Below are positions 1 through 46,133 of a stretch of 64,000 nt of DNA, piece after piece. The DNA is taken from NCBI GenBank assembly GCA_040376705.1, contig JBEIQE010000005.1:64156-128155 (forward strand), written 5' to 3'. Origin of the DNA: Micavibrio sp. Lineage in GTDB: Bacteria > Pseudomonadota > Alphaproteobacteria > UBA2400. The notes under the pieces are model-generated. The model made no database searches. It saw only the letters and a program-made list of their open reading frames with translations, and was not told the origin of the DNA. The position numbers and the translations under genes are program-made. Each line of letters begins with the position of its first letter. Within the stretch, counting starts at the first letter, position 1.

Positions 1-3000
1 AGAATGAGGGTATCGCTGCCACCGGCGAGGTTAATCGTACCCCCGGTGATCTGCGTACCAAGAGTCACCACATCGGCACTGCTGCCACCGGTGAGGGTCT
101 CGATGTTCTGCACCGTCAGGGTGTTGAGGAAGTTGCCCAAGGTCAGGCTGTCATTACCTGCGCCGAGGTCGATCGTACCGGTCGTCACCTGACTGCCCAG
201 CGTTACGATATCGCCCGAGGTACCACCGGTCAGGGTTTCCACATTGCTGACTGTCAGCGTGTTGAGGAAGTTGCCGAGGGTGAGCGTATCGTCGCCACCA
301 GCAAGGTTGATGCTGCCGCCCGAGATCTGGGTTGCCAGCGTTACGATATCAGTCGAGGAATTACCCAGGATCGATTCGACGTTAGAGGTCGTCAGCTCAT
401 TGGCGAAGTTGCCAAGGGTGAGGCGATCGCTACCGGCGCCAAGGTTGATGGTACCAGTCGTAATCGCGCTACCCAGCGTGACGTAGTCGGTTGCCGAAGC
501 GCCATTGATGGTTTCGACATTGGTGAGCGTGATGGTATTGGCAAACGCGCCGAGGGTGACGGTATCGTCGCCATCGCCGAGGTTGATGGTACCGCCCGAA
601 AGTGCCGCAGCGAAAGTAAGTGCATCGTTGCTGGTGCCGCCAGTGACAGTCTCAACACTTGTGAGGGTGAGGCTGTTGGCAAAGTCACCCAATACGAGCG
701 TATCGTTGCCCGAACCGAGGTTGATCGCACCAGTCATCGCCGTACCAACCGTAACCACATCGGTATTGCTACCGCCGGTCAGGCTTTCGATATTGGCAAT
801 TGTCAGCGTATTGGCTGAATTGTTGAGGGTAAGGCGATCGCTACCGCCAGCCAGATCAATCGTGCCGGTGGTGATGGCGGTGCTGAGTGTCACGACATCA
901 GCCGAGCTACCGCCGGTAAGGGTTTCAACACTGCCAACTGTAACGGTGTTGACGAAGTCGCCCAGCGTGAGCGTATCATCACCCGCGCCGAGGTTGATCG
1001 AGCCGTTGGTGAGGGCCGAGCTGACAGTCACGATATCGGCCGACGAGCCACCGATAACAGCTTCAACATTGTTGATGCTAAGGGTGTTGTCAAAGTTGCC
1101 CAGTACAAGCGTATCGTAACCGCTACCGAGGTTGACCGTTCCAGCCGTAATGGCGTTGGCGAAGGTCACACGGTCGGCCTGCGCGCCACCAGTGAGAGTC
1201 TCGACGTTATTAACAGTCAGCGTATTGGCGAAGGCGCCGAGGGTGAGCGTATCGTTACCTGCACCAAGGTTGATGGTACCGGTAGTAATGGCGCTACCCA
1301 GTGTTACGGCATCATCATCTGTACCGCCGGTGAGGTTTTCGACGCTCACAATGGTAAGCGTATTCACGAAGTCGCCCAGAATGAGCGTATCGGTGCCGCT
1401 GCCGAGGTTGACCGTGCCGGTTGTGATCTGGCTGCCCAGGGTCACGGTATCGGCCGAGTTGCCACCGGTGATGGTTTCGATATTTACGGTAGTGAGCGTG
1501 TTGGTAAATGCACCCAGTACCAGTGTGTCGGTGCCTGAGCCGAGATCCAGCGTACCCGCTGTAATCGCGTTGCCCAGCGTTACGGTGTCGTTGCTGTTAC
1601 CGCCCGTCAGTGTCTCGACGTTCGAAACAGTGAGGGTGTTGTTGAAGTTGCCCAGCACCAGCGTATCGGTACCCGCGCCGAGGTTGACGTTAACACCCGA
1701 AACGGCAGCGCCGAGAGTAACAACGTCGTCAGCCGTGCCGCCGACAACGCTCTCGACGTTGATAACCGTCACGCTGTTGGCGAAGTTGCCAAGCGTGAGA
1801 ATATCGCTGCCCGAGCCGAGGTTGAGCGTACCCGCAGTCACCTGACTGCCGAGAGTGACGATATCAGCCGAGTTACCGCCCGTCAGGGTTTCGATATCGG
1901 TGATGGTGAGTGTGTTGGCGGCATTGGCGAGGATGAGCGTATCATCGCCCGCACCGAGGCTGACGCTACCGCTGGTGATGGCGCCGCCAAGGGTCACCAC
2001 GTCATCAGCCGTACCACCATTGAGTGTTTCAACACTGATGATGGTGAGCGTGTTGTTAAAGTCAGCCAGTGTCAGGGTATCGCTGCCACCTGCCAGGTTC
2101 ACGGTACCGCCATTCATGCCGGTTGAGAGCGAGAGCACGTCATTGGCAGATGAGCCGAGGATGGTCTCGATATTGGCCAGCGTGAGAGTATTGGCGAAGT
2201 TACCCAATACGAGCGTGTCGTTACCCGAGCCAAGGTCGATGGTGCCTGCAGTAACCTGTGTACCGAGGGTTACAACATCGTCGCTGTTACCACCGGTCAC
2301 TGTTTCGATATTCGATACAGTGACGCTATTGGCGAAGTTACCCAATACGAGCGTATCGTCGCCGGCTGCAAGGTCGATCACACCGGTAACCTGCGAGCCG
2401 AGGGTGACTGTATCATCGCTGGCGTTACCGGTAACCGTCTCGATGTTCGAGAGGGTAACGGTGTTGGCGAAGTTGCCGAGCGTGAGGCGGTCAACACCTG
2501 CACCAAGGTCGATGGTACCAGCGGTAACGGCCGTACCCAGCGTGACGGTGTCCGAACCAGAGCCGCCAACCAGCGTTTCGACGTTGCTGACGGTCAGCGT
2601 GTTGGTGAAGGTCACCAGCGTGAGCGTATCGTTGCCCGAGCCGAGGTCGATGGTGCCAGTGGTGATCTGCGTACCTAGGGTAACGCTGTCGTCACTGGTG
2701 CCGCCAACGATGGTCTCAACGTTGAAGACGGTGAGGGTATTGGCAAAGTCGCCCAGCGTGAGCGTATCCGCTGCAGCGCCGAGGTCGACACGGCCACCGC
2801 TGATGGCAGTACCCAGCGTAACTGTATCGGCCGAGTTGCCGCCATAAACAGTTTCGATGTTGCTGGTCGTCACTGTATTGGCGAAGTTGCCGAGGTTGAG
2901 GCGATCGTTACCCGCTGCCAGATCGATGGTGCCGGTAGTCATGGCGCTGCCCAGAGTAACGGTGTCGTTACCCGTACCTGCGGTCAGTGTCTCAACGTTA

Positions 3001-6000
3001 CTTACGGTGAGCGAATTGTTGAAATCACCCAATACGAGCGTGTCATCGCCTGCGGCCAGATCAACCGTCATGCCCGAGGCTACTGCGCCCAAGGTTACAA
3101 CGTCATCGCTGGTGCCGCCGGTTACGGTCTCGATGGTGGTTACGGTTACCGAGTTGGTAAAGTCACCCAATACGAGCGTATCGAGGCCCGCACCGAGGCT
3201 GATGCTGCCCGAAGTGATGGCGCTGCCCAGGGTAACGGTGTCAGCCGAAGTACCGCCAACAATGCTCTCGACATTGGTAAGCGTTACGTTGTTGGCGAAG
3301 TTGCCAAGGGTAATGGTGTCAGTACCCGAGCCAAGGTCAATCGTGCCACTGGCGGCGCTGCCCAGAGTAACCGAGTCATCATCGGTACCACCGGTAATGG
3401 TCTCAACGTTCAGAACCGTCAGGCTGTTGGCGAAATCGCCCAGCGTAATGGTGTCATTCCCAAGGCCAAGATTGAAGGTACCCGCCGTAACAGCCGAGCT
3501 GAAGGCAAGCGTATCAGCCTGAGCACCGCCCATGACGCTTTCAATATTGGTCACAGTCAAGGTGTTGGTGAAGTTGCCAAGGGTCAGACGATCAGTGCCA
3601 GAGCCGAGGTCAATCGTGCCAGCCGTAATCGCTGTAGCCAGCGTCACCACATCGGCGCTGTTACCGCCAGTAAGGGTCTCAACATTGCTGACAGTAAGGG
3701 TGTTGACGAAGTTACCAAGGCTGAGCGTGTCATCGCCCGCGCCGAGGTTGATGCTGTAATTAATGGCAGCACTGCCAAGCGTCACTACATCGTCGCTGGT
3801 ACCACCAACAAGGGTTTCGATGTTGCTGGTTGTCAGTGTATTGGCAAAGTCACCCAGCGTGAGCGTATCTGCGCCGCCTGCAAGGTCAACCGTACCGGCT
3901 GTAATGGCTGAGCCCAAGGTTACGTTATCGCCTGCCGCTGCACCGGTAATGGTCTCGATGTTGGTGGCAGTCAGCGTGTTGTTGAAGTTGCCGAGTACGA
4001 GTGTGTCATCGCCCGAGCCGAGGTCGAGTGTACCAGCCGTAATCGCTGCCCCCAGGGTCACGGTATCATCATCCGTACCACCGGTGAGGGTTTCAACACT
4101 GGTTACGGTCAGGGTATTGGCCACATCATCGAGTACCAGCGTATCGTTGCCGGCGCCAAGGTTGACGCTACCGCCCGAGATGCTGCCCGAAATGGTCACC
4201 ACATCGGCCGAGCTGCCGCCAAGGACGCTCTCGATATTGGTTACAGTCAGGGTATTGACGAAGTTGCCAAGGGTCAGGCGGTCAGTGCCTGAGCCGAGGT
4301 CGAGCGTACCGGCTGTAATAGCCGAGCTAAGGGTGACCAGGTCTGAGCTGGTACCACCAATCAATGTCTTAACGTTGCTGACGGTCAGTGTGTTGGCAAA
4401 GTTGCCGAGTGTGAGTGTGTCATCGCCCGCACCGAGGTCAACACTGCCACCCGAGATGGCGGTGCCAAGGGTCACGGTATCATCCGACGTACCGCCAACA
4501 ATGCTTTCGATATTGGTGGTGGTCAGCGTATTGGCAAAGTCACCCAGCGTGAGGCGATCAACGCCCGCACCGAGGTTCAGTGTGCCGGTTGTAATCGCAT
4601 CGCCCAGCGTCACCGCATCGGCCAGCGAGTTACCGACAATGCTCTCGACGTTGGTAACTGTAAGGGTATTGGCAAAAGCACCGAGGGTAAGCACGTCATC
4701 GCCCGAGCCAAGGTCAATCGTACCAGCCGTAATGGCGGTACCGAGGGTCACGGTATCATCATCCGTACCGCCAACCAGTGTTTCGACACTGGCGATGGTG
4801 AGGGTATTGGCCACATCATCAAGCGTGAGCGTATCGTTGCCCGAGCCGAGGTTGATGCTGCCGCCCGAGATGGCACCCGAGATGGTCACAACATCATCAC
4901 TGTTACCACCGACAACACTTTCGATGTTGGTGACGGTCAGGGTATTGGCGAAATTGCCAAGGGTCAGACGGTCGGTACCTGAGCCGAGATCCAGCGTACC
5001 TGTTGTAATGGCCGAGCCGAGGGTCACGAGGTCGGCAGAGGTGCCGCCGGTGAGGGTCTCGACATTCGAAACCGTAAGGGTATTGGCAAAATCACCCAGT
5101 GTGAGGGTATCGTCGCCCGCACCAAGATTGATGTTACCACCCGAGATGGCGGTGCCCACAGTCACCACATCATCACTGGTGCCGCCCATAACGCTTTCGG
5201 TGTTGGTGACGGTCAGCGTATTGGCAAAGTCGCCCAGCGTGAGGCGATCGGTGCCTGCGCCAAGGTTAACTGTGCCGGTTGTAATGGCCGTGCCCAGAGT
5301 AATGTAATCAGCGCCTGAACCACCCACGAGTGTTTCGACGTTCGAAACAGTCACGGTGTTAGAGAAGGTTACGAATGTCAGCGTATCGTCGCCCGAGCCG
5401 AGGTCGATGGTGCCGGTTGTTACCTGCGTACCCAGGGTTACCGAGTCATCATCGCTGCCGCCATTAAGGGTTTCGACGTTAAAGACCGTCAGCGTATTGG
5501 CAAAGTCGCCCAGCGTGAGGGTATCGGTACCTGAGCCGAGGTCAACACGGCCACCCGAGATGGCAGCGCCAAGCGTAACCACATCGCTTGAAGTACCGCC
5601 CATAACGGTTTCGGCATTCGAGGCAGTAACAGTATTGGCAAAGTTGCCAAGGGTGAGGCGGTCAAGCGCGCCATCGCCAAGGTCAATCGTACCAGTCGTT
5701 ACAGCTGTGCCGAGCACAACGAGGTCGGTTGAAGTGCCGCCGGTCAACGTCTCGACGTTGAGCACGGTTACGTTATTGGCAAAATCGCCCAGCGTCAGGG
5801 TATCATCACCTGCGCCAAGGTTCACGGTGCCGGTAATGGCAGCGCCTACGGTCACTACATCATCGCTGGTGCCGCCGGTTACGGTTTCGATGCTCTGCAC
5901 CGTCAGGCTGTTGGCAAAATCACCCAATACGAGCGTATCGTTGCCTGAACCGAGGTTGAGCGTGCCTGCTGTAATGGCTGTAGCCAGTGTTACGGTATCG

Positions 6001-8700
6001 GCGGATATACCGCCAGTGATGGTCTCGACGTTCGAAACGGTAAGGCTGTTGATGAAGTTGCCAAGCACGACAGTATCGTCGCCCGAGCCAAGATCGAAGT
6101 GACCGCCGGCAGCCTGCGCCGTCAGGGTGATCACATCATCGCCGGTGCCGCCCACAACGCTCTCTACGTTGCGTACGCTCACGGCATTGGCTGCGCCATC
6201 GGCCAGCGTCAGCACGTCGGCGCCGCTGCCAAGGTCAACACTTACATCAGTTACTGCTGCGCTAAGGGTAACAAGGTCAACACCCGTACCACCACGCACA
6301 CTCTCAACCGATGTAACAGTGAGGGTATTGGTGAAGTTACCAAGAATGAGCGTATCTGCGCCGCTGCCCAGATCAATCGTGCCAGAACTGATGGCATCGC
6401 CCAGTGTCACGGTATCGGCTGAATCGCCACCCGTGAGGGTTTCAACACCGGTTACGGTAAGTGTATTCACAAAGTCGCCGAGCGTGAGCGTGTCATCGCC
6501 CGCGCCAAGGTTAACCGAGCCACCTGAAATGGCAGCGCCAAGCGTCACCACATCATCGCTGGTGCCACCAGTGACGGTTTCGATGCTCTGGGTTGTTACG
6601 CTGTTGGCGAAATCACCCAATACGAGTGTATCGTTGCCACCACCGAGGTTGACGGTGCCAGCTGTAATTTGGGTTGCGAGAACCACGCGGTCAGTCGAGC
6701 TGCCGCCGGTAATGGTTTCGGTGTTCGAGAGCGTGATGGTGTTGTTGAAGTTGCCAAGAGTAACGGTGTCATCACCCGAGCCGAGGTCGAAGCTGCCCGC
6801 TGTAACTTGTGCACCCATCACGACGACGTCGTCACCAGTACCACCGGTGAGAGTCTCGATACCATTGATGGTAACGGTATTGGCAAAGTCGCCCAGTGTC
6901 AGTGTATCTGTACCGCCACCAAGGTTGATGTTACCCGCGCTCAGTTGCGTGGTAACGGTCACAATATCGTCGCCGCCGTTAGCAGCCACAGTCTCGACAT
7001 TCGCAACACTTACGGTGTTGTTGAAACTGCCAAGCGTAAGCGTATCTGCGCCGGAGCCAAGATCGATGGTGCCTGCAGTAACCTGCGTGCCCAGACGGAT
7101 GCTATCGGCACTATCGCCACCCGTGAGGGTTTCAACATTGCTGACAGTAAGCGAGTTTACGAAGTCACCCAATACGAGCGTGTCGTCGCCTGCACCAAGG
7201 TTCACAGCGCCAACCGACATGGCGGTGCCCAGCGTGACGACGTCATCGCTGGTACCACCGGTTACGGTTTCGATATTCGAGAGGGTAACGCTATTGGCAA
7301 AGTCGCCCAGCGTGAGGCGGTCTGTACCGGCGGCAAGGTCGATAGTGCCAGAGGTAACAGCTGTGCCCAGCGTAATGTTATCTGAACCCGAGCCACCCAC
7401 GATTGTTTCAACATTCGAAACCGTAACCGTGTTGGTGAAGGTCACGAAAGTAAGGGTGTCATCGCCCGAGCCAAGGTCGATGGTGCCACCGGTCACCTGC
7501 GTGCGCAGAGTGACGCTGTCGTCGGATGTACCGCCAACAATGGTTTCGACATTAAAGACGCTTACGCTGTTGGCAAAATCGCCAAGGGTAAGGGTATCAT
7601 CGCCACCAGCAAGGTTAACCGTGCCGTTGATGGCATCGCCCAGCGTTACAGTATCGTTCGATGAATTACCGACGATGCTTTCGATGCCGGTAAGAGTAAC
7701 CGTATTGGTGAAGTTGCCGAGCGTGATACGGTCGGTACCCGAGCCAAGGTCAATCGTGCCAGCAGTTACTGCTGTGCCAAGGGTGACAACATCGTCGGAT
7801 GTACCGCCAACCAGTGTTTCAACATTGCTGACTGTAAGCGTATTGGCAAAGTCGCCCAGTGTCAGTGTGTCATCGCCACCTGCAAGGTCAAAGCGACCGC
7901 TGGCAACAGCCGAGCCCAGTGTAACGATATCATCGCTCGCATCGCCAACGATGCTTTCAATGTTGGTGGTAGTCAGCGTGTTGGCAAAGGCACCAAGGGT
8001 GAGGACGTCAACACCAGAGCCCAGGTCGAGGGTACCCGTGGTAATGGCATCGCCCAGCGTGACGAGGTCAGCACTATTTCCGCCCACCAGTGTTTCAACA
8101 CCAATAACAGTGAGCGTGTTGACGAAGTTGCCAAGGGTGAGTGTGTCATCGCCCGAGCCGAGGTCGAGCGTAATGCCAGCTGCCGCTGTGCCAAGGGTGA
8201 TCGAGTCGTCCGATGTACCGGCAACCAGTGTCTCAACGTTCGAAAGGGTTACGGTATTGGCAAGGTCAGCCAGAGTAAGCGTATCGCTACCGGCGCCAAG
8301 ATTAACACTGCCGTCCATGGCCGTGCTTACAGTTACTGTATCGGCACCGCTTACACCAACGATGCTTTCGATATTCGCTGTCGTTACGCTGTTGGCAAAA
8401 TCACCAAGGGTGAGAACGTCGTTACCCGAACCGAGATCGAGTGTACCGCTGGTGATGGCTGTGCCCAGTGTTACGCTGTCGTTATCGGTACCGCCAACAA
8501 TGGTATCGGCATTTGAAACAGTGAGGTTGTTGACGAAGTCGCCAAGCGTAAGTACATCGCCGCCACCGCCGAGATTATAGGTGCCGTTTACAACTGCGGT
8601 AGAAACAGTGATGAGGTCGGCGCTGGCACCGCCGGTGAAGGTCTCGACACCCGAGATGGTGACGGTATTGTCGGCGTTGCCTAATGTGAGCGTGTCGTTA
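1..8700. repeat. tandem array of ~144-bp degenerate coding repeats (about 60 copies) within the giant gene
   Basis: Periodic recurrence of ...accctcac/ggtgatggt..gttgccaa.gt-type motifs every ~144 bp on the plus strand. Corresponds to the 48-aa protein repeat. Copies are diverged, not identical. Confidence 0.75.
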
Positions 8701-8840
8701 CCCGCCCCGAGGTTAATGGTTGCCGCGGTGAGCGATTCAGTGACGGTGATTACGTCAGCGCCCGATCCGGTTGTCAGCGAGTCGAAGGTAGTGAAAGTGC
8801 CTTCGTTGTTGCCATTGCCCAGCGTAATATCGACAGCCAT
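1..8840 (-). CDS. giant repetitive secreted/surface protein (N-terminal >2,940 aa; partial, C-terminus lies beyond window start); candidate T1SS-type adhesin/large repetitive protein
   Basis: Reverse-complement translation from ATG (complement of cat at ~8838-8840) gives MAVDITLGNGNNEGTFTTFDSLTTGSGADVITVTESLTAATINLGAGNDTLTLGN..., then ~60 degenerate tandem repeats of ~48 aa. Consensus approx DTLTLGDFANTLTVSNVETLTGGTSDDVVTLGTAITAGTIDLGSG. The same frame at the window start reads ...LTLGNFLNTLTVQNIETLTGGSSADVVTLGTQITGGTINLAGGSDT. No minus-strand ORF with a stop is listed in this interval, consistent with one open frame running off the edge. Gly/Thr/Asp/Leu-rich beta-roll/beta-helix-like composition. 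Long plus-strand ORFs here (Pro/Arg/Ser/Val-rich) are the antisense artefact. Family not assignable by eye. Confidence 0.8.
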   Translation of the reverse strand, partial: MAVDITLGNGNNEGTFTTFDSLTTGSGADVITVTESLTAATINLGAGNDTLTLGNADNTVTISGVETFTGGASADLITVSTAVVNGTYNLGGGGDVLTLGDFVNNLTVSNADTIVGGTDNDSVTLGTAITSGTLDLGSGNDVLTLGDFANSVTTANIESIVGVSGADTVTVSTAMDGSVNLGAGSDTLTLADLANTVTLSNVETLVAGTSDDSITLGTAAAGITLDLGSGDDTLTLGNFVNTLTVIGVETLVGGNSADLVTLGDAITTGTLDLGSGVDVLTLGAFANTLTTTNIESIVGDASDDIVTLGSAVASGRFDLAGGDDTLTLGDFANTLTVSNVETLVGGTSDDVVTLGTAVTAGTIDLGSGTDRITLGNFTNTVTLTGIESIVGNSSNDTVTLGDAINGTVNLAGGDDTLTLGDFANSVSVFNVETIVGGTSDDSVTLRTQVTGGTIDLGSGDDTLTFVTFTNTVTVSNVETIVGGSGSDNITLGTAVTSGTIDLAAGTDRLTLGDFANSVTLSNIETVTGGTSDDVVTLGTAMSVGAVNLGAGDDTLVLGDFVNSLTVSNVETLTGGDSADSIRLGTQVTAGTIDLGSGADTLTLGSFNNTVSVANVETVAANGGDDIVTVTTQLSAGNINLGGGTDTLTLGDFANTVTINGIETLTGGTGDDVVVMGAQVTAGSFDLGSGDDTVTLGNFNNTITLSNTETITGGSSTDRVVLATQITAGTVNLGGGNDTLVLGDFANSVTTQSIETVTGGTSDDVVTLGAAISGGSVNLGAGDDTLTLGDFVNTLTVTGVETLTGGDSADTVTLGDAISSGTIDLGSGADTLILGNFTNTLTVTSVESVRGGTGVDLVTLSAAVTDVSVDLGSGADVLTLADGAANAVSVRNVESVVGGTGDDVITLTAQAAGGHFDLGSGDDTVVLGNFINSLTVSNVETITGGISADTVTLATAITAGTLNLGSGNDTLVLGDFANSLTVQSIETVTGGTSDDVVTVGAAITGTVNLGAGDDTLTLGDFANNVTVLNVETLTGGTSTDLVVLGTAVTTGTIDLGDGALDRLTLGNFANTVTASNAETVMGGTSSDVVTLGAAISGGRVDLGSGTDTLTLGDFANTLTVFNVETLNGGSDDDSVTLGTQVTTGTIDLGSGDDTLTFVTFSNTVTVSNVETLVGGSGADYITLGTAITTGTVNLGAGTDRLTLGDFANTLTVTNTESVMGGTSDDVVTVGTAISGGNINLGAGDDTLTLGDFANTLTVSNVETLTGGTSADLVTLGSAITTGTLDLGSGTDRLTLGNFANTLTVTNIESVVGGNSDDVVTISGAISGGSINLGSGNDTLTLDDVANTLTIASVETLVGGTDDDTVTLGTAITAGTIDLGSGDDVLTLGAFANTLTVTNVESIVGNSLADAVTLGDAITTGTLNLGAGVDRLTLGDFANTLTTTNIESIVGGTSDDTVTLGTAISGGSVDLGAGDDTLTLGNFANTLTVSNVKTLIGGTSSDLVTLSSAITAGTLDLGSGTDRLTLGNFVNTLTVTNIESVLGGSSADVVTISGSISGGSVNLGAGNDTLVLDDVANTLTVTSVETLTGGTDDDTVTLGAAITAGTLDLGSGDDTLVLGNFNNTLTATNIETITGAAAGDNVTLGSAITAGTVDLAGGADTLTLGDFANTLTTSNIETLVGGTSDDVVTLGSAAINYSINLGAGDDTLSLGNFVNTLTVSNVETLTGGNSADVVTLATAITAGTIDLGSGTDRLTLGNFTNTLTVTNIESVMGGAQADTLAFSSAVTAGTFNLGLGNDTITLGDFANSLTVLNVETITGGTDDDSVTLGSAASGTIDLGSGTDTITLGNFANNVTLTNVESIVGGTSADTVTLGSAITSGSISLGAGLDTLVLGDFTNSVTVTTIETVTGGTSDDVVTLGAVASGMTVDLAAGDDTLVLGDFNNSLTVSNVETLTAGTGNDTVTLGSAMTTGTIDLAAGNDRLNLGNFANTVTTSNIETVYGGNSADTVTLGTAISGGRVDLGAAADTLTLGDFANTLTVFNVETIVGGTSDDSVTLGTQITTGTIDLGSGNDTLTLVTFTNTLTVSNVETLVGGSGSDTVTLGTAVTAGTIDLGAGVDRLTLGNFANTVTLSNIETVTGNASDDTVTLGSQVTGVIDLAAGDDTLVLGNFANSVTVSNIETVTGGNSDDVVTLGTQVTAGTIDLGSGNDTLVLGNFANTLTLANIETILGSSANDVLSLSTGMNGGTVNLAGGSDTLTLADFNNTLTIISVETLNGGTADDVVTLGGAITSGSVSLGAGDDTLILANAANTLTITDIETLTGGNSADIVTLGSQVTAGTLNLGSGSDILTLGNFANSVTVINVESVVGGTADDVVTLGAAVSGVNVNLGAGTDTLVLGNFNNTLTVSNVETLTGGNSNDTVTLGNAITAGTLDLGSGTDTLVLGAFTNTLTTVNIETITGGNSADTVTLGSQITTGTVNLGSGTDTLILGDFVNTLTIVSVENLTGGTDDDAVTLGSAITTGTINLGAGNDTLTLGAFANTLTVNNVETLTGGAQADRVTFANAITAGTVNLGSGYDTLVLGNFDNTLSINNVEAVIGGSSADIVTVSSALTNGSINLGAGDDTLTLGDFVNTVTVGSVETLTGGSSADVVTLSTAITTGTIDLAGGSDRLTLNNSANTLTIANIESLTGGSNTDVVTVGTAMTGAINLGSGNDTLVLGDFANSLTLTSVETVTGGTSNDALTFAAALSGGTINLGDGDDTVTLGAFANTITLTNVETINGASATDYVTLGSAITTGTINLGAGSDRLTLGNFANELTTSNVESILGNSSTDIVTLATQISGGSINLAGGDDTLTLGNFLNTLTVSNVETLTGGTSGDIVTLGSQVTTGTIDLGAGNDSLTLGNFLNTLTVQNIETLTGGSSADVVTLGTQITGGTINLAGGSDTLI

Positions 8841-9076
8841 AATTTTTACCCCTGAAACCAGGTTGATGCCCACCTACATGGTGGACATTCGTTTAATAAG
8901 GTTAACAGATGTTTAAATTTGCGCCAGTCGGTAATATTTACTTTTACCCTACGTAATGTATTAACGTAGAAGAAAGTGTAACAAAACTGCCGTGTTCGAG
9001 CGATATTAACATGTATATCTAAGCAGGTTAGGGTAGTCTCCTGAGGCCGCGTGTTAATACTTAGAAGGGGCGCTTC
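8841..9076. promoter_or_regulatory. AT-rich divergent promoter region between giant repeat gene (-) and manC (+); contains imperfect inverted repeat CTACGTAAtgtatTAACGTAG at ~8949-8969
   Basis: Marked drop in GC relative to flanks. Divergent start codons on either side. GAAGGGG Shine-Dalgarno about 8 nt before manC ATG at 9077. Confidence 0.4.
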
Positions 9077-10516
9077 ATGGTTCAGACGATTCAGCCGGTC
9101 ATCCTTTCCGGTGGGGCAGGTACCCGCCTTTGGCCCCTCTCGCGGGAACTTTACCCCAAGCAGCTGCTTAAGCTGGTATCGGGCCAGACCCTGATTCAGG
9201 AAACTGCGCTCCGCACCTCCGACCCCGCCCTGTTCGCGGCGCCGCTGGTTGTGTGTAATGCCGAACACCGATTCGTTATTGATGACCAGCTGCAGGAAGT
9301 AGGCATCAAACCCGCCGGCCTGCTGATCGAACCCATCGCCCGCAATACCGCCGCTGCCATTGCTGCAGTGGCTGTTTATGCCCGCAACCAGAACCCTGAG
9401 CAGCTCTTGCTCATCATGCCGTCCGATCACATGATCAAGGACAGCAAAGCCTTCCTCGCCGCCATAGCTGCTGCCAAGCCCTTGGCTGAAGCTGGCCGCA
9501 TCGTGACCTTCGGGATTACACCCGACCGGCCCGACACTGGCTATGGTTATATCCGCTCGGGCGATAAGCTTGAGGGTACTGCTGGATTTGCCATCAGCTC
9601 GTTTGTCGAGAAGCCGGATCTGGCCACTGCCCAAGGCTACCTCGCGCAAGGTGGTTACCTCTGGAACGGCGGCATCTTCTGCGCGCGGGCGGATAAACTG
9701 ATTGCCGAGTTCGAGCGCTTCTCACCCAAGGTGCTTGAAGCTGCCGAAGCTGCAGTGGATCAAGCCACGCAAGACCTTGGCTTCACCCGCCTGGCGGATG
9801 CGCCCTTCCGTAACTCGCCCTCCCAGCCGTTTGACAAAGCGGTGATGGAGCAGACCAGCTTTGGCGCAGTGGTGCCGGTCAGCATGGGTTGGTCCGACAT
9901 CGGCACCTGGCTCTCGCTCTGGCATGCCAGCCCGCAGGATGAAAACAATAATGCGCTGATTGGCAATGTGCGTAGTGAAGACAGCTCGGGCTGCTATGTG
10001 CGCAGCGAAAAGCTACTCACCACCGTTATTGGTGCGCGCGATATGGTGGTGGTAGTAACCGATGATGCCGTGCTGGTGGCCCCGCGCGACCGCGCAGCCG
10101 AAGTTGGCAAGCTGGTTGATAAGATGAAGAAGGATGGCCTCAGCCAAACCCGCGTGCATAACGTGGTGTATCGCCCCTGGGGCCATTACGAAATGCTCTC
10201 GGCTGATACGCGTTTTCAGGTCAAGCGCATTACGGTGAAGCCCAACGGTCGCCTCTCGCTGCAAAAGCATATGCATCGTGCGGAGCACTGGACCGTGGTA
10301 GCCGGGACTGCGCAGGTAACCATCAACGATAAGGTATCGCTACTGGGCGAGAACGAGTCAGTCTACGTACCATTAGGTGCTGTGCATCGCCTTGAGAACC
10401 TCGGCAAGCTACCCGTAGTGCTTATCGAAGTACAAAGCGGCGCCTACTTGGGCGAAGATGACATCGTGCGCCTTGAAGATGCGTATGCGCGCGAGGCGTT
10501 GCCGAAGGCGGTTTAA
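9077..10516 (+). CDS. manC: bifunctional mannose-1-phosphate guanylyltransferase / mannose-6-phosphate isomerase (type II PMI, C-terminal cupin)
   Basis: N-terminal VILSGGAGTRLWPLSRELYPKQLL nucleotidyl-transferase motif. 479 aa with C-terminal cupin (..HRAEHWTVVAGTAQVTINDK..). Typical ManC/XanB/AlgA architecture. Confidence 0.9.
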   Translation: MVQTIQPVILSGGAGTRLWPLSRELYPKQLLKLVSGQTLIQETALRTSDPALFAAPLVVCNAEHRFVIDDQLQEVGIKPAGLLIEPIARNTAAAIAAVAVYARNQNPEQLLLIMPSDHMIKDSKAFLAAIAAAKPLAEAGRIVTFGITPDRPDTGYGYIRSGDKLEGTAGFAISSFVEKPDLATAQGYLAQGGYLWNGGIFCARADKLIAEFERFSPKVLEAAEAAVDQATQDLGFTRLADAPFRNSPSQPFDKAVMEQTSFGAVVPVSMGWSDIGTWLSLWHASPQDENNNALIGNVRSEDSSGCYVRSEKLLTTVIGARDMVVVVTDDAVLVAPRDRAAEVGKLVDKMKKDGLSQTRVHNVVYRPWGHYEMLSADTRFQVKRITVKPNGRLSLQKHMHRAEHWTVVAGTAQVTINDKVSLLGENESVYVPLGAVHRLENLGKLPVVLIEVQSGAYLGEDDIVRLEDAYAREALPKAV

Positions 10517-10607
10517 GCATGATTATTTTCATTCCAGCTTGCGCTGAAGTGACAATTTCAGTGTTTAAAAATTCGCAGTTACGATTGAGCGATGCAATAT
10601 AAGTTTC

Positions 10608-10847
10608 TCAGGTCCACTCACCATTCGGGTCGGCCCATAAAAGAATATCGCGATAGTCTTTGGCTGCCTGCTGCACAAAGTGTTCTACTTTAGAAATGTC
10701 ATGATCGCTCAAAACCACTATGCACATTTGTATGCGGTGTGCCTCTTCACCCTTATAGGTGTTCAGAACCTGCATAACCTCTTGCACCTTATTCGCTGGA
10801 AAAGCAGCTGTTACAGCAGCCTCTATATCCTCTGACGTAACTGGCAT
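10608..10847 (-). CDS. small hypothetical protein (79 aa), AT-rich, last gene of the gshB operon
   Basis: Intact ORF 8 bp downstream of gshB on the same strand. Visibly lower GC than neighbours. No recognisable motif. Confidence 0.4.
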   Translation of the reverse strand: MPVTSEDIEAAVTAAFPANKVQEVMQVLNTYKGEEAHRIQMCIVVLSDHDISKVEHFVQQAAKDYRDILLWADPNGEWT

Positions 10848-10855
10848 ACCGCCTC

Positions 10856-11800
10856 CTAACGCCTCAAGCGCTTCTCAACCGCATTCCAGACGAGTGCCTC
10901 AATCTGCACATCGTCAAGCTTGTTAGCCTGCGCGATGCCGGTGGGCGAAGTCACGTTAATCTCGGTGAGATAGCCACCAATCACATCAATACCCACAAAC
11001 AGCAGGCCCATATCACGCAGCACAGGGCCGATGGTGGCGATGATTTCGCGCTCACGCTCGGTGAGTATAACCTTCTCGAGGGTTGAGCCGGTACGCATGG
11101 CGGCGCGTGCTTCGCCTTCAGCGGGCACACGCGCAAAACCGCCTACGTATTCGCCTTCAACCAATATGAGGCGGCGGTCGCCTTGGCGTACCTCAGGCAG
11201 GTAGCGCTGCACAATCAATGGCTCAATCGTGGCTGCCATCAATGTTTCAAATGCCGAACCAAAGTTCTCATCGTCCGGCTTAATATGAAATACGCCGTGG
11301 CCCGCATGGCCGTTGATGGGTTTAATAATGATATCCGCGTGCGCATCGCGGAAGGCATTTACAGCCCCGCGATCACGCGTGATGAGCGTGGGGGGAATGA
11401 AATCAGGAAAACGCAGCACCAGCATTTTCTCGGGCGCATCGCGGATGCTGCGCGGGTTGTTGAGCACCAGCACCTGATCTGCAATCAACTCGAGCAGATG
11501 CAGCGAGGCGATATAGGCTACATCAAACGGGGGGTCCTGCCGCACCCAGATTACATCCATCCCGCCCAGATCAATTGTCTCGCGCGGGCCGACGACATGG
11601 CTTTTCTCCGGCGGGTTGAGGCCTGTTACTTTATAGGCGGGAGCACTGAGCACGCCCGGCTGCCAGCTCAGGTCTTTCGCTTCATAGAAATAAACATCGG
11701 CCCCGCGGCGGCCAGCTTCGGCAGCAATGCGAATGGAAGAGTCGGAAGCAAAATTGGCGCTGGCAAGCGGGTCCATTTGTATGGCCACCTGCAGCGCCAT
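10856..11800 (-). CDS. gshB: glutathione synthetase (prokaryotic ATP-grasp type)
   Basis: 314 aa. N-terminal MALQVAIQMDPL... and ATP-grasp core (..IIKPINGHAGHGVF.., ..LTEINVTSPTG..) typical of GshB. Confidence 0.9.
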   Translation of the reverse strand: MALQVAIQMDPLASANFASDSSIRIAAEAGRRGADVYFYEAKDLSWQPGVLSAPAYKVTGLNPPEKSHVVGPRETIDLGGMDVIWVRQDPPFDVAYIASLHLLELIADQVLVLNNPRSIRDAPEKMLVLRFPDFIPPTLITRDRGAVNAFRDAHADIIIKPINGHAGHGVFHIKPDDENFGSAFETLMAATIEPLIVQRYLPEVRQGDRRLILVEGEYVGGFARVPAEGEARAAMRTGSTLEKVILTEREREIIATIGPVLRDMGLLFVGIDVIGGYLTEINVTSPTGIAQANKLDDVQIEALVWNAVEKRLRR

Positions 11801-11803
11801 CGC

Positions 11804-12670
11804 TTAGGCACCTGTGCTTGCGGTAAGCGCGCGCAACTGGTCAATCAGCGAGGCGGTCTGCCCGCGCATCGGATCATCGCCTGACAATGTCAGGTAGTTC
11901 TCGAGCGCAATAATCGCGCGGTGCTCTTCGCCAAGACGGGCCAGCGTGAGGCCGAATTCGCGCCACCAGATGGCGCGCTCGGGCGTGAGCAGCAGCATCG
12001 CTTCCATGATTTCGGCCGCAGCCTCATCCATACCGGCGCGCACATAACGCATCTTCAGGTTATTCTGCAGACGCAGCAGCACGTCTTTATTGCCAATCGG
12101 CAGGTAATACTCGGGCAGCAATTCGGCTTCTGGGCCCAGCTTGGCTTTAACCAGCTCGCGCATGCGCGGCACGGCCACGATATCGCCGCGCTCGAACGGA
12201 TCGATAATCAGACGGCGGCCATTGAACTCAAGACGCACCAGAAAATGTTCAGGGAAGTTAAGTCCAACTGCTGACCAGCCATTGGCGCGCGCGGCAGCGA
12301 GGTAAATAATACCAAGCGCAACCGGCAAGCCGCGGCGGCGGTCTACCACCTTCATGAGGTTGGCGTTATCCGGTGAATCATACGTGGCTTCATCGCCCTC
12401 ATAGCCATGGCGAATGGCGATCACTTCACGCAAAATTGCAGCTATCTGCTCGACCCGCACCGGCTTGACGCTTTGCGTCATCTGCGCAACTTCGGCCCCC
12501 AAGCGGTCAAGATGCTCGCGGTAAGCAAATGTATCGCGGCGCGGCAAACGGAGTGAAGCAAAAGCCAGGGCCACCGCTCCCAGATCGATCAGATCGTCCG
12601 GCACTTCAGACCATGCGCGCAATTCTTCCTGCGCCTGATTCTTGGTGGGGATGCTGACCAGCACGGTCAT
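11804..12670 (-). CDS. transglutaminase-like/TPR protein of the SirB1 (UPF0162) family
   Basis: 288 aa. Central RRRGLPVALGIIYLAAARANGW..GLNFPEHFLVRLE matches transglutaminase-like cysteine-protease-like core of SirB1/YchA proteins. C-terminal TPR-like helices. 4-bp overlap with upstream BON gene. Confidence 0.6.
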   Translation of the reverse strand: MTVLVSIPTKNQAQEELRAWSEVPDDLIDLGAVALAFASLRLPRRDTFAYREHLDRLGAEVAQMTQSVKPVRVEQIAAILREVIAIRHGYEGDEATYDSPDNANLMKVVDRRRGLPVALGIIYLAAARANGWSAVGLNFPEHFLVRLEFNGRRLIIDPFERGDIVAVPRMRELVKAKLGPEAELLPEYYLPIGNKDVLLRLQNNLKMRYVRAGMDEAAAEIMEAMLLLTPERAIWWREFGLTLARLGEEHRAIIALENYLTLSGDDPMRGQTASLIDQLRALTASTGA

Positions 12671-13251
12671 TGGGTGTTCTCCGTTACGTCGATAAAGGCC
12701 TCGACCGATTTAACACCGGGGAAATACCGGGCCAGATACATGACCCGCTGCCTCTCCCGCGTACTCTCGGCCTCACCTATGACGTAAACTGTACCATCAT
12801 TTGTTTCAACATCATAGTTGAGAGCCTTCACATCGCGATCGAAGGTATAGACACCCTCGAGTCGCAGCGAGATTGACTCATCGGCAAGCCGTGTCCCCAG
12901 GCTGCGGTCGGGCCCGATTGTGAGTCTATTCACGGGGTTAACCGCTCCAGCCTTGATGGCCAGTTCTTCAGCTAATGTTTTAAGTTCCTGCGAGGGCACC
13001 CGCCCGATGATAACGACTCGGCCTTTGCTGATCATCAGCGAAGCGCGTTCATAGAGCTGAATGGAATGATGGAACCACGATTCGTTGATGGCGAGGCGTA
13101 ACTGGTAATCGGTTAGTGCACCAGAAAGGCCGCGCTCCTGCATACTGGCGGTGCCGGCAGCACCACCTGCGCCCAACAGAAAATCACGCGGCGTGCAGGC
13201 GGTTAACAGCAATAGAAAGGCTATCAGCCCGGCTTGAGCGCGATCTGGCAT
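12667..13251 (-). CDS. BON-domain lipoprotein (OsmY/DolP(YraP)-like), two BON repeats
   Basis: Signal peptide with lipobox LLTAC. Two ~70-aa BON-like segments (..LKTLAEELAIKAGAVNPVNRLTI.. and ..VYVIGEAESTRERQRVMYLARYFPGVKSVEAFIDV..). Confidence 0.7.
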   Translation of the reverse strand: MPDRAQAGLIAFLLLLTACTPRDFLLGAGGAAGTASMQERGLSGALTDYQLRLAINESWFHHSIQLYERASLMISKGRVVIIGRVPSQELKTLAEELAIKAGAVNPVNRLTIGPDRSLGTRLADESISLRLEGVYTFDRDVKALNYDVETNDGTVYVIGEAESTRERQRVMYLARYFPGVKSVEAFIDVTENTQ

Positions 13252-14135
13252 GTATCTCCATCCCGCACAGTGGCTTGCAGTGTCACATTATGGCCATTCC
13301 AGCTCACGCGCTTGCTCGAGCCGGTGGCAATACGCTGACTAACCATGCCGTTACCGCCCACAATACAATAACGCCCGCTGTTACGGCGGCTAATCGCAAT
13401 CAGGCGAATGTGATAACCACTTACATCGCGTTCGTCGCCTACATCGAGCGTCACAGTCTGGGCGCCAGCCAGTGCAGTGGTTGGCCCGCTAATGGTACCC
13501 AGGGCACCGGTGCCAATCGTCTCAACTGTAGGCACCGTACCGGTGGGGCGCGGCGGGCTGCGGCGCGGCTTGGGCGGCCAGTTTTGCGGCCATACGAACG
13601 GTGTGGGCGATACCACATTAGGCGGCGCGATAGTGGTGCTGGCGGGGCTGGGGGCAGCACTGGTATTGGGCGGTGTAGGCTCAGTTGGCGGGGTAATGCC
13701 CGTATCATCGGGCGCAAGATCAGCAGGAGGCATAACACTGGCTGGGGCCACGGGCTGATCTACCGCACGGCCCGGAGGCGGCTTGGGCAGGGGCGGACCA
13801 TCGCCTGCAGGAGCCTGTTGCGCAGCTGATTCAGTCGCGCGGCGCAAACGCTCGAGCGAGGAATTGCAGTTCGAGAGGCGGCTCTCAAGCTCTTCGCGCT
13901 GGCCATTCTGCAAACCCCGCGCAGGCGGGCAAACCGGCTGCCGCGCCTGCAGCGCGGCAACTTCGGCTTTAAGCTGCACAATCTCGCGCACATGCGGGCG
14001 CTCGACAAAAAAGTAAAATGCAAATGCACCGATACAGATGCCGATAACTAGGCTCGAAACAAATACCTTCAGCTCGCGCGATGAATCTTCATCGGCATAG
14101 ACAGAGTAGTTCGGTCGGCGGTGTTTACGGGCCAT
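13224..14135 (-). CDS. membrane-anchored proline-rich hypothetical protein
   Basis: N-terminal basic segment + TM helix (LVIGICIGAFAFYFFV), coiled-coil-like stretch, long Pro/Thr/Ala-rich linker, C-terminal ~90-aa domain. Several overlapping ORFs on both strands are GC artefacts. 28-bp overlap with BON gene suggests the start may be an internal codon. Confidence 0.5.
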   Translation of the reverse strand: MARKHRRPNYSVYADEDSSRELKVFVSSLVIGICIGAFAFYFFVERPHVREIVQLKAEVAALQARQPVCPPARGLQNGQREELESRLSNCNSSLERLRRATESAAQQAPAGDGPPLPKPPPGRAVDQPVAPASVMPPADLAPDDTGITPPTEPTPPNTSAAPSPASTTIAPPNVVSPTPFVWPQNWPPKPRRSPPRPTGTVPTVETIGTGALGTISGPTTALAGAQTVTLDVGDERDVSGYHIRLIAISRRNSGRYCIVGGNGMVSQRIATGSSKRVSWNGHNVTLQATVRDGDTCQIALKPG

Positions 14136-33566: not shown

Positions 33567-34442
33567 ATGAGCGACGCTCCACAGATATTCGACCGCCAGT
33601 TATTAGCCCAGCGCCGCACACGCGCGGCCAGCAGCTTTGCGTCTGCGCGCTTTTTGCACGAAGAAGTGGGCACACGTCTGCTCGAGCGCCTCTCCGAGAT
33701 CAAACGCAGCTTCCCGCTGGCGGTAAATCTGGGCGCGATGGATGGTCACTTAACAAAGCAGCTCATCGGCCAGAATGGCATTGAAAGCGTTGTGCAGTTC
33801 GAGCTGTGCGAAGCATTAGCCCAGCAGGGCAGCAATATTGTGGTGGCAGATGAAGAATGGCTGCCACTGGCCCCGCAAACGGTTAACCTCATCATCAGCA
33901 ACCTCGCGCTGCATTGGGTGAACGACCTGCCCGGCGCACTGGCGCAAATCCGCATGGCGCTGAAGCCGGATGGTTTGTTCATGGGGGCGATATTGGGCGG
34001 CGAGACGCTATTCGAGCTGCGCCGCTGCCTGATGGAAGCCGAGATGGCAGCGACTGGTGGCATCTCCCCGCGCCTCTCGCCCCTCACCGAAGTGCGCGAT
34101 GCCGGCGGACTTATACAACGTGTAGGTTTAGCCCTGCCGGTGGTGGACCGCGAAATGATTACGGTAACCTATGCCGACCCCATCAAACTGCTCTATGACC
34201 TGCGCGCTATGGGCGCGACTAACCTCACCCACAACCGCCCGCGCAAACCACTGACACGCACCGTGCTGATGGATGCGCTCGCGCGCTATCGTGAGCACTT
34301 CACGGTAGAAGAAGACCGCGTACAAGCCACGTTCGAAGTGATTTACCTGGCTGGCTGGGCCCCGCACGAGAGCCAGCAGAAACCCTCCCCACGCGGCAGT
34401 GCCAAGCATTCGCTGGTCGAGGCGTTGTTGCCTAAAACCTAA
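33567..34442 (+). CDS. class-I SAM-dependent methyltransferase, BioC/NDUFAF5-like
   Basis: Divergent from comF as in many alphaproteobacteria; ..NLIISNLALHWVNDLPGAL..LKPDGLFMGAILG... Start placed at internal Met (MSDAPQIF) to avoid overlap with comF; track ORF starts 33519. Confidence 0.65.
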   Translation: MSDAPQIFDRQLLAQRRTRAASSFASARFLHEEVGTRLLERLSEIKRSFPLAVNLGAMDGHLTKQLIGQNGIESVVQFELCEALAQQGSNIVVADEEWLPLAPQTVNLIISNLALHWVNDLPGALAQIRMALKPDGLFMGAILGGETLFELRRCLMEAEMAATGGISPRLSPLTEVRDAGGLIQRVGLALPVVDREMITVTYADPIKLLYDLRAMGATNLTHNRPRKPLTRTVLMDALARYREHFTVEEDRVQATFEVIYLAGWAPHESQQKPSPRGSAKHSLVEALLPKT

Positions 34443-35329
34443 TACCAACGCAGCGTGGATATAAAGTCCTTGCTTGGCTCGCATATAAAATCATCAGTGA
34501 GATTTGCATGTGGCAGCTCTTCTAAAGCATTGGTTCCGCGTAAAATTTCTGTCACTAGCGCTTTTGGCTCGAAAGCAAAACTGCGATAGGACCAATGATA
34601 AAATGATAGTCCCCCGCCAGAAGATTCAATAATCACACGTGCATGATTTTGGCCATATCTAGGGCCATAACTAAGCGTATTGCCAAAATGTGTAAGAGCC
34701 CCATCTTCCATCATTAAAAATGGAGACATCTGCCAAACCGAGCGTAATGGAGTCTTATCAGGCAACTGAACACAGAAGGCCTGACCGGCCATAGAAAAAC
34801 TATGTATGCCCGCAACAGCATAAGCTGTAACATATAAAGATGAGACTAGAACCAAACCAACAAGGCCCACAACAAGAACAATGAATATTCTATTTGCAGC
34901 CGTACGCATGCCGCGAATGTAATATGTAGCTGCTGCCAAAATTACCGCAGCCAGTATCAAGTTCGCGCCAAGCCCACTTAACACTGCCATCATGTCTGCT
35001 GCGTGGATTGTAATCCATGCAGTTACAACCCCAAAAAGCATGGCTATAGCCATAGGTGCCGTCCAGCCTTTCATTAGCGCATACCCAAGCTCCACAGCAA
35101 GCCGCAGAGTTGACCAAATCAAAGCCGAGGCGATAAAAACAAAAGTGCAAAAAAACAAGAAAGCGTTGCTGCGCTTAAATGGAAAATCTGTCAGATGCAA
35201 AGTAATGAACAAAGGCACAAACGCAAAAATTACCGCAACAAATCCCGCATAAAAAGCTTCTTTTGGAAGGCTAAGAACCAGCACTCCGACTAATACAAAG
35301 AATAAAAGCGGAAAAATCAATATTTCCAT
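34439..35329 (-). CDS. integral membrane hypothetical protein (about 6 TM + ~110-aa C-terminal soluble domain), AT-rich
   Basis: Strongly hydrophobic N-terminal two-thirds. Gene body visibly AT-richer than flanks. Confidence 0.5.
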   Translation of the reverse strand: MEILIFPLLFFVLVGVLVLSLPKEAFYAGFVAVIFAFVPLFITLHLTDFPFKRSNAFLFFCTFVFIASALIWSTLRLAVELGYALMKGWTAPMAIAMLFGVVTAWITIHAADMMAVLSGLGANLILAAVILAAATYYIRGMRTAANRIFIVLVVGLVGLVLVSSLYVTAYAVAGIHSFSMAGQAFCVQLPDKTPLRSVWQMSPFLMMEDGALTHFGNTLSYGPRYGQNHARVIIESSGGGLSFYHWSYRSFAFEPKALVTEILRGTNALEELPHANLTDDFICEPSKDFISTLRWY

Positions 35330-35334
35330 TTAAC

Positions 35335-35781
35335 TTATAACCGCTCCTGTAGCTGCGGCAGTAACGGCACTGAGCCGGGCACGAATTTGTAATCGTGGAA
35401 GTTGGCAGGACGAACCCACTTGAGCTCTTGCCCTTCCTTGCCTTGCGGGGTGCCTTCCCACATGCGGCACAAAAATACCGGCATAAGGATATGCAGGCCC
35501 AAATCGCCATAGCGGTAGCTTACAAACGTGAAGGGCAAAAAGCAGCTGGGCTTGGTGATGATGCCGAGCTCTTCATGCAGCTCGCGCGCCAGCGCCTGTT
35601 CGGGTGTTTCATTGGGCTCGAGCTTGCCGCCCGGAAATTCCCACCAGCCGGCATAAGCCTTGCCCGCCGGGCGTGAACCGATGAGCACACGGCCATCCGG
35701 ATCTATCAAAACAACCGCCGCTACCAGAACTAACGGTAGCGGCGGCGGAATTGTTACATCGATTTCAAAGCAACCTGACAA
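35335..35781 (-). CDS. mutT: NUDIX hydrolase (MutT-like 8-oxo-dGTP diphosphatase)
   Basis: Nudix box GGKLEPNETPEQALARELHEELGI. Confidence 0.8.
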   Translation of the reverse strand: MSGCFEIDVTIPPPLPLVLVAAVVLIDPDGRVLIGSRPAGKAYAGWWEFPGGKLEPNETPEQALARELHEELGIITKPSCFLPFTFVSYRYGDLGLHILMPVFLCRMWEGTPQGKEGQELKWVRPANFHDYKFVPGSVPLLPQLQERL

Positions 35782-35789
35782 GGCAGCTC

Positions 35790-38299: not shown

Positions 38300-38538
38300 A
38301 CCACGACGATATACATAGGTTTTTCTATTACAAATCAATTTACTGGGCAGATTATGCTTTATGCACAAGACGCATCATTTTTGATCTCCAGACCCACCTA
38401 CTTACTTTGAAAGCGTCTTGGCGAACACAGGAAAGAGGTAGCTTTACGCCAAGCCATGCAGGCTTACGCAGGGTGGATTATGAAAATGCAGCAGGGTCAG
38501 GAAATCGTTACAAACGGGTGGCTAGTTGATTGACCAGT

Positions 38539-43204: not shown

Positions 43205-43262
43205 CGGCATTAACCATAATACCGGCTTGCACTGCGCCAAGCAGCATTGCTACCCTTCGTGC

Positions 43263-43856: not shown

Positions 43857-43926
43857 TTAACCTATCTCGCCTTGCACAATAGCCACGCCGCTTGCTAGCC
43901 TGCCCGAAAGTAAACAGGGGGCAAAT

Positions 43927-46127: not shown

Positions 46128-46133
46128 TTTAAC

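Follow-up and report, generated by a model that had tools for sequence, protein, structure and literature searches.

In a 64,000-nt stretch of DNA from Micavibrio sp. (hereafter the window), the first 8,840 nt carry on the minus strand the 5′ part of a giant gene that continues past window position 1 at its 3′ end. The visible part of the giant protein is best explained as essentially one continuous β-solenoid, built from a 46-residue repeat that would derive from repeats-in-toxin (RTX) motifs, extremely acidic and predicted to be extracellular. We favour, with moderate confidence and on comparative grounds, the reading that it is a β-roll surface fibre exported by a type I secretion system (T1SS), folded by calcium and probably glycosylated. 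The features on which this reading is built are the following.

Positions 1 to 8840, minus strand: 5′ part of the giant gene, 2,946 codons and 288 kDa so far (stop-free frame; homologous open frames elsewhere; third-position substitution excess).
Positions 8838 to 8840, minus strand: ATG start codon (in-frame stop upstream; N-terminus conserved in the related loci L030, L024, L018 and L028).
Positions 8849 to 8853, minus strand: Shine-Dalgarno-like AGGGG, 8 nt 5′ of the ATG (read from the sequence).
Positions 15 to 8831, minus strand: 64 contiguous 46-aa (138-nt) repeats, residues 4 to 2942 (profile hidden Markov model parse, alignment, profile autocorrelation and AlphaFold2 models).

An earlier reading of the letters, made without database searches (the sequence-only reading), had claimed a giant minus-strand open frame of more than 2,940 aa, and this claim held. 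The frame running from position 8840 to position 3 comprises 2,946 codons, and a check for missed in-frame stops found none; the protein opens with MAVDITLGNGNNEGTF (reverse-complement translation of window 1-8840). The remaining five frames of the same interval contained 10, 262, 20, 132 and 178 stops. The ATG start at 8840 appears well supported, because the closest in-frame stop on its 5′ side, a TAG, lies 33 nt upstream, because the AGGGG precedes it and because the N-terminus (MAVDITLGNGNNEGTFTTFDSLTTGSGADVITV) aligns with those of relatives in L030 (MSVDITVGNSPFTATFSTFDTLVSGTGNDVITL; in the alignment MSVDITVGN...TFSTFDTLVSGTGNDVITL) and L024 (VVVTLGNGGNTATFTTVDTLTSGTGADTITF). The richness in Gly, Asp and Thr and the absence of Cys that the sequence-only reading had noticed were also found: the visible protein consists of 19% T, 15% G, 12% L, 10% V and 9% D; Cys, Trp and Pro are missing altogether, and Lys and His occur once each. 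Acidic residues (D+E = 324) far outnumber basic ones (K+R = 22), giving a computed isoelectric point of ∼4, and the N-terminus (MAVDITLGNGNNEG) shows neither a basic or hydrophobic signal nor a Sec signal. Acidity, zero Cys and no N-terminal Sec signal are traits of T1SS substrates, and all of them are present.

The plus strand carries, opposite the repeat array, a chain of long antisense open reading frames (ORFs) of 204-817 aa at window 505-8580. An artefact might be suspected from these ORFs and from a short-read assembly that breaks inside the array: a mis-assembled repeat, a pseudogene, or plus-strand ORFs of up to 817 aa as the real genes. We give this explanation hardly any credence. 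Apart from the stop-free frame itself, the sense frame of six complete orthologues had 0 stops in 3,525-5,980 codons, whereas their antisense frames were interrupted by 6-37 or more stops at varying positions. Substitutions between the orthologues L010 and L012 numbered 510/347/1331 at codon positions 1/2/3, and their codon differences comprised 1,094 synonymous versus 698 non-synonymous changes. Moreover, the array units have diverged so far that no exact repeat exceeds 33 nt, and an independent assembly is identical over its stretch, as described below. Coding is on the minus strand, as the sequence-only reading had proposed, and the long plus-strand ORFs are antisense by-products of the repeat codon pattern that could be mis-called as genes.

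The sequence-only reading had described about 60 tandem repeats of 48 aa, each made of two 24-aa half-units. The tandem array was confirmed, with 64 back-to-back units parsed by the profile hidden Markov model from residue 4 to residue 2942, but the period is 46 aa: residue autocorrelation reached 0.49 at lag 46 and 0.47 at lag 92, compared with 0.12 at lag 48 and ∼0.1 at lags 23 and 24. Two halves do exist; they are, however, unequal (26 + 20 residues), and the self-similarity of the unit profile peaks at shifts 20 and 26, together with an equally strong 9-residue sub-period. Since the array starts at residue 4, the visible protein has no non-repeat N-terminal domain. In the unit consensus (DTLTLGxFANTLTVxNVETxxGGxSxDxVTLGxAITxGTxDLGxGx), D1, N10, D27 and L42 are invariant, and L5, T13, E18, G22, T30, G38 and G45 are conserved in at least 90% of units. 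The unit is best read as five nonapeptide-like segments (9+9+8+9+11), which would be LGxGxD-TLT, LGDFAN-TLT, VSNVE-TLx, GGxSxD-xVT and LGxAITxGTxD. An RTX-type xGxGxD-like turn occurs in two of the five, LGxGxD (positions 42-46 plus 1) and GGxSxD (22-27), and in our reading D1, N10, E18 and D27 would fall at position 6 of the GGxGxDxUx nonapeptide, with hydrophobic residues at position 8. The visible 2,946 aa contain 38 N-x-S/T sequons, most of which fall on a variable position, and none is conserved in the repeat. A higher-order duplication was also seen at residues 1198-1657 (approximately window 3870-5249), where the most similar units stand five repeats apart with ∼79-82% nucleotide identity and TRF gives a 276-nt period.

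For such an array, proneness to assembly collapse and variation in repeat number had been anticipated, and neither expectation was borne out. Nucleotide identity between units averages 61% and does not exceed 82%; this divergence and the short longest exact repeat make collapse unlikely, and the repeat array is old. The independent Logan assembly of run ERR9973207 was identical to window 7092-13574, and its contig ends inside the array, which indicates that short reads fragment the giant gene rather than collapse it. Unit counts were equal in diverged relatives: the H. zavarzinii (L006) and Hyphomicrobium (L013) genes, 67% identical, both have 126 units (5,980 and 5,981 codons), and L010 and L012, 86% identical, have 104 units each. 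Over evolutionary time, the number of repeats is not labile. In five metagenome-assembled genomes (MAGs; L003, L007, L017, L026 and L029) the orthologous gene was shattered into dozens of short frames, a pattern that suggests assemblies rich in indels more than real pseudogenes.

The structure of repeat segments was then predicted, a step that the sequence-only reading had proposed together with a β-roll or β-helix architecture. AlphaFold2 returned confident models both for six repeats, with non-overlapping parts of the array and homologues in the input alignment (pLDDT 95.7, pTM 0.90), and for two repeats (pLDDT 96.0, pTM 0.86). The two models were all-β and contained, in every 46 residues, five short strands at a spacing of 8-11 residues. 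The 46-aa repeat array is predicted with high confidence to form an all-β solenoid, so that the proposed architecture stood as a prediction, its nearest folds being RTX rolls and the MpIBP helix. In a Foldseek comparison with the PDB, the top matches were the CyaA RTX blocks (7usl, 7rah), the Ca-dependent β-helix of MpIBP region IV (3p4g) and serralysin β-rolls; the best matches to the model, which was built without calcium, were RTX rolls, with a probability of 0.98-0.99 and TM-scores of 0.2-0.44. A search of PDB sequences with the giant protein gave nothing at E ≤ 1. Given these TM-scores and the empty sequence search, the modelled fold is RTX-like locally and has no close match among solved structures. 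As to the coil register, we would prefer ∼2.5 RTX-like turns per 46-aa repeat over 1 or 2, because the DSSP strand spacing is 8-11 residues, a lag-9 peak is present and strand 10-14 would be left without a partner in a two-turn scheme. The three-sided two-turn helix looks the least compatible with the models. At ∼2.5 turns of 4.8 Å per repeat, the 64 visible repeats would be ∼75 nm long.

The sequence-only reading could not place the repeat in a named family, and indeed no curated family covers it. A Pfam scan of the 2,946 visible residues yielded no model for the repeat, no PF00353 HemolysinCabind at E ≤ 1 and no Big or cadherin domain. Summed Pfam scores for DUF3181, DUF5734 and DUF4027 were discarded as spurious, since not one stretch passed. 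The NCBIfam model NF046115 (SMc04171 family calcium-binding repeat protein) matched in 11 stretches to profile positions 185-386 with 92.2 bits, far below its cut-off of 625, and the giant protein is therefore not an NF046115 equivalog. Among 1.84 billion representative proteins, a profile of 46 positions matched at least 696 at E ≤ 0.001 and at least 103 at E ≤ 1e-30; these are minimum counts, since the giant genomic orthologues are absent among the matches listed. A homologue search with a 420-aa query returned only proteins of up to 700 aa and not the giant protein itself, and an exact 60-mer from the window edge was absent in GTDB representative genomes. Related loci were located by scanning one genome per species with one 275-aa segment as query. 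This gave 28 loci, essentially all alphaproteobacterial, with 48-61% tblastn identity over the 275 aa; carriers include Hyphomicrobium zavarzinii ATCC 27496, other Hyphomicrobium, Chthonobacter, Siculibacillus, Telmatospirillum, Azospirillum and Acetobacteraceae. The MAG of L030/L005, which holds the closest relative, is labelled Pseudobdellovibrionaceae, whereas all other carriers are Alphaproteobacteria.

Complete orthologues proved to be nearly pure arrays of 28-126 units (1,442-5,981 codons) with a conserved N-terminus. The family N-terminus, MxVxLxN...D(T/S)L..G..AD followed by an uninterrupted 46-aa array, is present in the giant protein. After the array come tails of 110-130 aa that resemble serralysin, ZapA and RTX C-terminal regions, and canonical RTX nonapeptides occur in relatives only near the C-terminus. 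In the closest relative, which has 61% identity and is found on the MAG contigs L030 and L005, the protein ends ...DFNVSADLLFFSGL...VDTDGDGTADMNITLTG...NFIWT, by its sequence a typical alphaproteobacterial RTX secretion domain, and a C-terminal RTX/T1SS-type secretion region was found in L005 and in every complete orthologue inspected. Multi-domain relatives carry 6-33 copies of the module, then PF00353/PF08548 RTX regions and T1SS-type tails; their domains before the module are diverse and include calpain-like C2 protease, FecR-like, cadherin-like and ∼650-aa domains. Among them, the Acetobacteraceae-type MAG proteins P0001, P0003 and P0007 have a calpain-like C2 cysteine protease domain (PF00648) N-terminal of the 46-aa repeats, and in P0073 and P0074 a ∼650-aa N-terminal domain precedes 17-21 repeats and an RTX tail.

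These architectures bear on a second explanation, that the protein is a giant adhesin of the LapA/SiiE/MpIBP type, which the T1SS channel would keep tethered to the outer membrane and whose tip would bind a specific ligand; a surface adhesin was one of the roles suggested by the sequence-only reading. Giant size, acidity, probable T1SS export and rod-like repeats would fit such an adhesin, but repeats that begin at residue 4 leave no N-terminal retention module, and Ig-like extender or ligand-binding domains are absent both from this copy and from the complete orthologues, in which only a short tail is added to the array. We consider an adhesin of this type unlikely.

The gene neighbourhoods of relatives supplied further evidence for the proposed T1SS export. 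In 12 Hyphomicrobium-clade loci a divergent ATP-binding cassette (ABC) exporter gene lies upstream of the giant gene, and its product matches TIGR01842 (type_I_sec_PrtD) with 638 bits against a cut-off of 510. After this PrtD-type gene come a HlyD-family gene (HlyD_3) and then a nucleoside diphosphate (NDP)-sugar set of nucleotidyltransferase, 4,6-dehydratase, C-methyltransferase and epimerase/reductase. In L025 (1235-7167) and L017 (1171-4429) a complete-looking NDP-deoxyhexose pathway with a sugar C-methyltransferase adjoins the T1SS ABC/HlyD genes; the C-methyltransferase hints at an unusual methylated sugar. Downstream of the giant gene, the Hyphomicrobium-clade loci encode a rhamnosyl O-methyltransferase-like protein and a large tetratricopeptide repeat (TPR) plus GT41 protein, which matches NGT weakly, at 53 bits; a TPR plus GT9-like protein lies 3′ of the giant gene in other clades (L002, L003, L016 and L022). 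A TPR-glycosyltransferase, GT41 or GT9-like, comes next in 12 of the 17 loci with a visible 3′ end, and 3 more of the 17 stop within the intervening rhamnosyl O-methyltransferase gene; the Telmatospirillum and Azospirillum loci were without a downstream TPR-glycosyltransferase. The giant gene of the closest relative is flanked just upstream by the gene of a canonical RTX protein of 644 aa (L030 7810-9744) and just downstream by that of an FkbM-like methyltransferase (L005 1905-2786).

The proposal of the sequence-only reading that the protein is a T1SS substrate thus received indirect support, from the RTX/T1SS-type C-termini of relatives and from the PrtD-type exporter and HlyD-family gene of the Hyphomicrobium clade. 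The opposing explanation would hold that the protein is cytoplasmic or otherwise exported and that T1SS neighbours in some relatives are coincidental. It draws on a window, and surroundings of several relatives, in which no T1SS genes were found, and on a C-terminus of this copy that lies beyond the window; set against it are the missing Sec signal, the RTX/T1SS-like tail in every complete relative examined and a PrtD-type ABC exporter adjacent in 12 independent loci. We judge it decidedly improbable, more so than the adhesin.

The same neighbourhoods speak to what the threonines might do. Regular Thr-x-Thr ladders on a flat solenoid face could order water or ions, in the manner of MpIBP region IV or insect antifreeze proteins, making the protein an ice-binding, ice-nucleating or mineral/cation-organising surface protein. 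A Thr content of 19%, conserved T-L-T and T-x-T strands and the place of 3p4g among the top structural matches are compatible with this explanation. However, TM-scores are only ∼0.3, the hosts Hyphomicrobium, Azospirillum and Telmatospirillum are not cold specialists, and the period is 46 rather than 19 (region IV) or 16/48 (ice-nucleation proteins). In addition, the genes conserved next to the giant gene serve glycosylation, and modified Thr residues therefore seem more likely than exposed ones. An ice- or mineral-organising function appears very improbable, ranking well below the adhesin and somewhat above an assembly artefact, and the glycosylated fibre remains our preferred explanation.

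On the 5′ side of the giant gene, the window contains the following features.

Positions 8841 to 9076, no strand: intergenic region between the divergent giant gene and manC, 236 bp, 41% GC (from the sequence).
Positions 9077 to 10516, plus strand: manC, mannose-1-phosphate guanylyltransferase / mannose-6-phosphate isomerase (Pfam NTP_transferase and MannoseP_isomer).
Positions 8901 to 8916, minus strand: TTAA-N7-TTAAC, candidate CtrA box, 62-76 nt 5′ of the ATG (motif scan; conserved block).

Because Hyphomicrobium-clade loci have their NDP-sugar genes on the corresponding side, the divergent manC is a possible supplier of sugar nucleotides and may be a member of the system. The TTAA-N7-TTAAC element matches the CtrA-box consensus of alphaproteobacteria, which makes it a candidate site. 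TTAA-N7-TTAA was observed twice in the 64 kb against 0.35 expected, and TTAA-N7-TTAAC was the one block conserved in L030, where it lies ∼75 nt upstream of the ATG, L008 and L015, whose 5′ regions are otherwise unalignable; 5′ of Hyphomicrobium-clade giant genes it was absent. The remaining 55 kb are housekeeping (gshB, rsmI, prmC, prfA, ispG, ptsP, lysC, secA, lolA, ftsK and others), and tRNA and Rfam scans of the 64-kb window were empty. Release factor 1 of the window reaches no more than 62-64% identity to named taxa (a Rhodospirillaceae MAG and Reyranella), with closer matches of 77-89% from mixed sources (Logan, ENA, JGI and NCBI), which points to an uncultured alphaproteobacterial host. 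Five tandem plus-strand ORFs at window 43122-46709, of 167-244 aa, had no Pfam match and were weakly paralogous, sharing a G(S/D)(S/A)L(R)DADN-like motif; they are possibly small nucleotidyltransferase-like proteins. Patches of lower GC content were seen at window 34000-36000 (52%) and 38000-40000 (50%) compared with ∼57-59%, and ORFs without a Pfam match lie at 34439-35329, 37706-38368 and 38539-39141.

For the giant protein as a T1SS-exported surface fibre, we infer the following course of events. Without a Sec signal, the protein would stay unfolded in the low-calcium cytoplasm, where a TPR-glycosyltransferase would probably decorate its abundant Thr (or Asn) residues. It would then be exported C-terminus first through a T1SS made of the PrtD-type ABC exporter, an HlyD-family adaptor and a TolC-like channel. 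Outside the cell, calcium bound at the xGxGxD turns would drive folding, and the rigid rod that results, of the ∼75 nm estimated above for the visible repeats, could serve as a surface fibril, a coat or a matrix component.

Several points weigh against this reading. The C-terminus of the giant protein falls outside the window, and no T1SS ABC, HlyD-family or TPR-glycosyltransferase gene was found within the 64 kb, which lie mostly on the 5′ side of the giant gene; nor are T1SS genes adjacent in the closest relative, Telmatospirillum or Azospirillum. Just two of the five segments of the 46-aa unit keep the full Gly/Asp turn, HemolysinCabind finds no match to the repeat even at E ≤ 1, and TM-scores to RTX rolls are low (0.2-0.44). 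Glycosylation of the giant protein, although probable in our view, is argued from a single source, the gene neighbourhood.

A more specific proposal can be made tentatively, and we would not expect it to hold in full. It is that these proteins represent a new class of bacterial glycoproteins, RTX-derived 46-residue β-roll rods of up to ∼6,000 aa, which would be O-glycosylated in the cytoplasm, exported by a PrtD-type T1SS and, in the sub-clade of the window, tied to CtrA. A dedicated TPR-GT41/GT9-like transferase would add methylated deoxy-hexoses to the unfolded protein before export, giving a sugar-coated surface fibre or coat, and the CtrA box would link expression to a cell cycle or motility programme. 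If true, no earlier type I secretion substrate would have been both glycosylated and served by a glycosylation island of its own. Our literature searches returned nothing specific on a giant Hyphomicrobium/RTX repeat protein, and nothing specific on a glycosylated T1SS substrate with a TPR-glycosyltransferase. The 46-aa repeat itself constitutes an uncurated family and would extend the RTX β-roll theme to a super-repeat that fills whole proteins of up to 6,000 aa. Because the cultured H. zavarzinii ATCC 27496 holds in one island a complete 126-repeat orthologue together with T1SS, deoxysugar, methyltransferase and TPR-GT41 genes, secretion, glycosylation and the structure that is built can be tested directly. 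Annotation may profit as well, since long antisense ORFs and the fragmentation of short-read contigs illustrate how genes of this kind come to be mis-called, and for protein engineering a predicted calcium-switchable, Cys-free and regular β-roll scaffold with a stable copy number could be useful.

Among known systems, the giant protein most resembles the RTX β-rolls of the serralysin/alkaline protease C-terminal domain and the CyaA blocks (PF00353, PF08548). It shares with them the xGxGxDxUx Gly/Asp turns, a predicted parallel β-roll-like solenoid, extreme acidity and the absence of Cys, and in relatives canonical nonapeptides and a T1SS tail follow right after the array and a PrtD-type exporter adjoins. 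It differs in that its unit is a 46-residue super-repeat (9+9+8+9+11) with two canonical segments only, in that its predicted strands are longer (3-6 residues, with two inward hydrophobics), and in that PF00353 is unmatched and TM-scores reach 0.2-0.44. Region IV of MpIBP (3p4g) is likewise an RTX-derived solenoid of non-canonical repeat length with Thr-rich faces within a giant T1SS protein; its repeat, however, has 19 residues, it is a small domain in a multi-domain Marinomonas ice-binding adhesin, and the TM-score is ∼0.3. With the giant RTX adhesins (LapA, SiiE, MpIBP, BapA class) the protein has in common that it is of their size class, forms a long repetitive rod by prediction and is probably exported by a T1SS, but it lacks their N-terminal retention module, Ig-like extenders and ligand-binding domains.

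Cytoplasmic glycosylation of exported proteins is known from HMW1C/NGT with the HMW1 adhesin (GT41) and from the TPR-glycosyltransferase FlmG with flagellin. The large TPR plus GT41 gene directly 3′ of a substrate-like gene in many relatives recalls these systems, from which the present one would differ by a putative T1SS route, in place of Sec/two-partner secretion or the flagellar route, and by a repeat that has no conserved sequon. A stretch of the same repeat type is found in SMc04171 of Sinorhizobium meliloti (NF046115), although this protein has ∼574 aa and few repeats; its secretion has been reported to be TolC-dependent (PMC2912261). Finally, oscillin of Phormidium and SwmA of Synechococcus are glycosylated RTX surface-fibril and S-layer proteins (PMC3034196). 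Both are cyanobacterial (646 aa / 130 kDa) and built of canonical nonapeptides, and for the giant protein glycosylation is deduced only from synteny; as rod-shaped or surface-layer glycosylated RTX proteins, they nevertheless fit the fibre-plus-glycan model proposed here.

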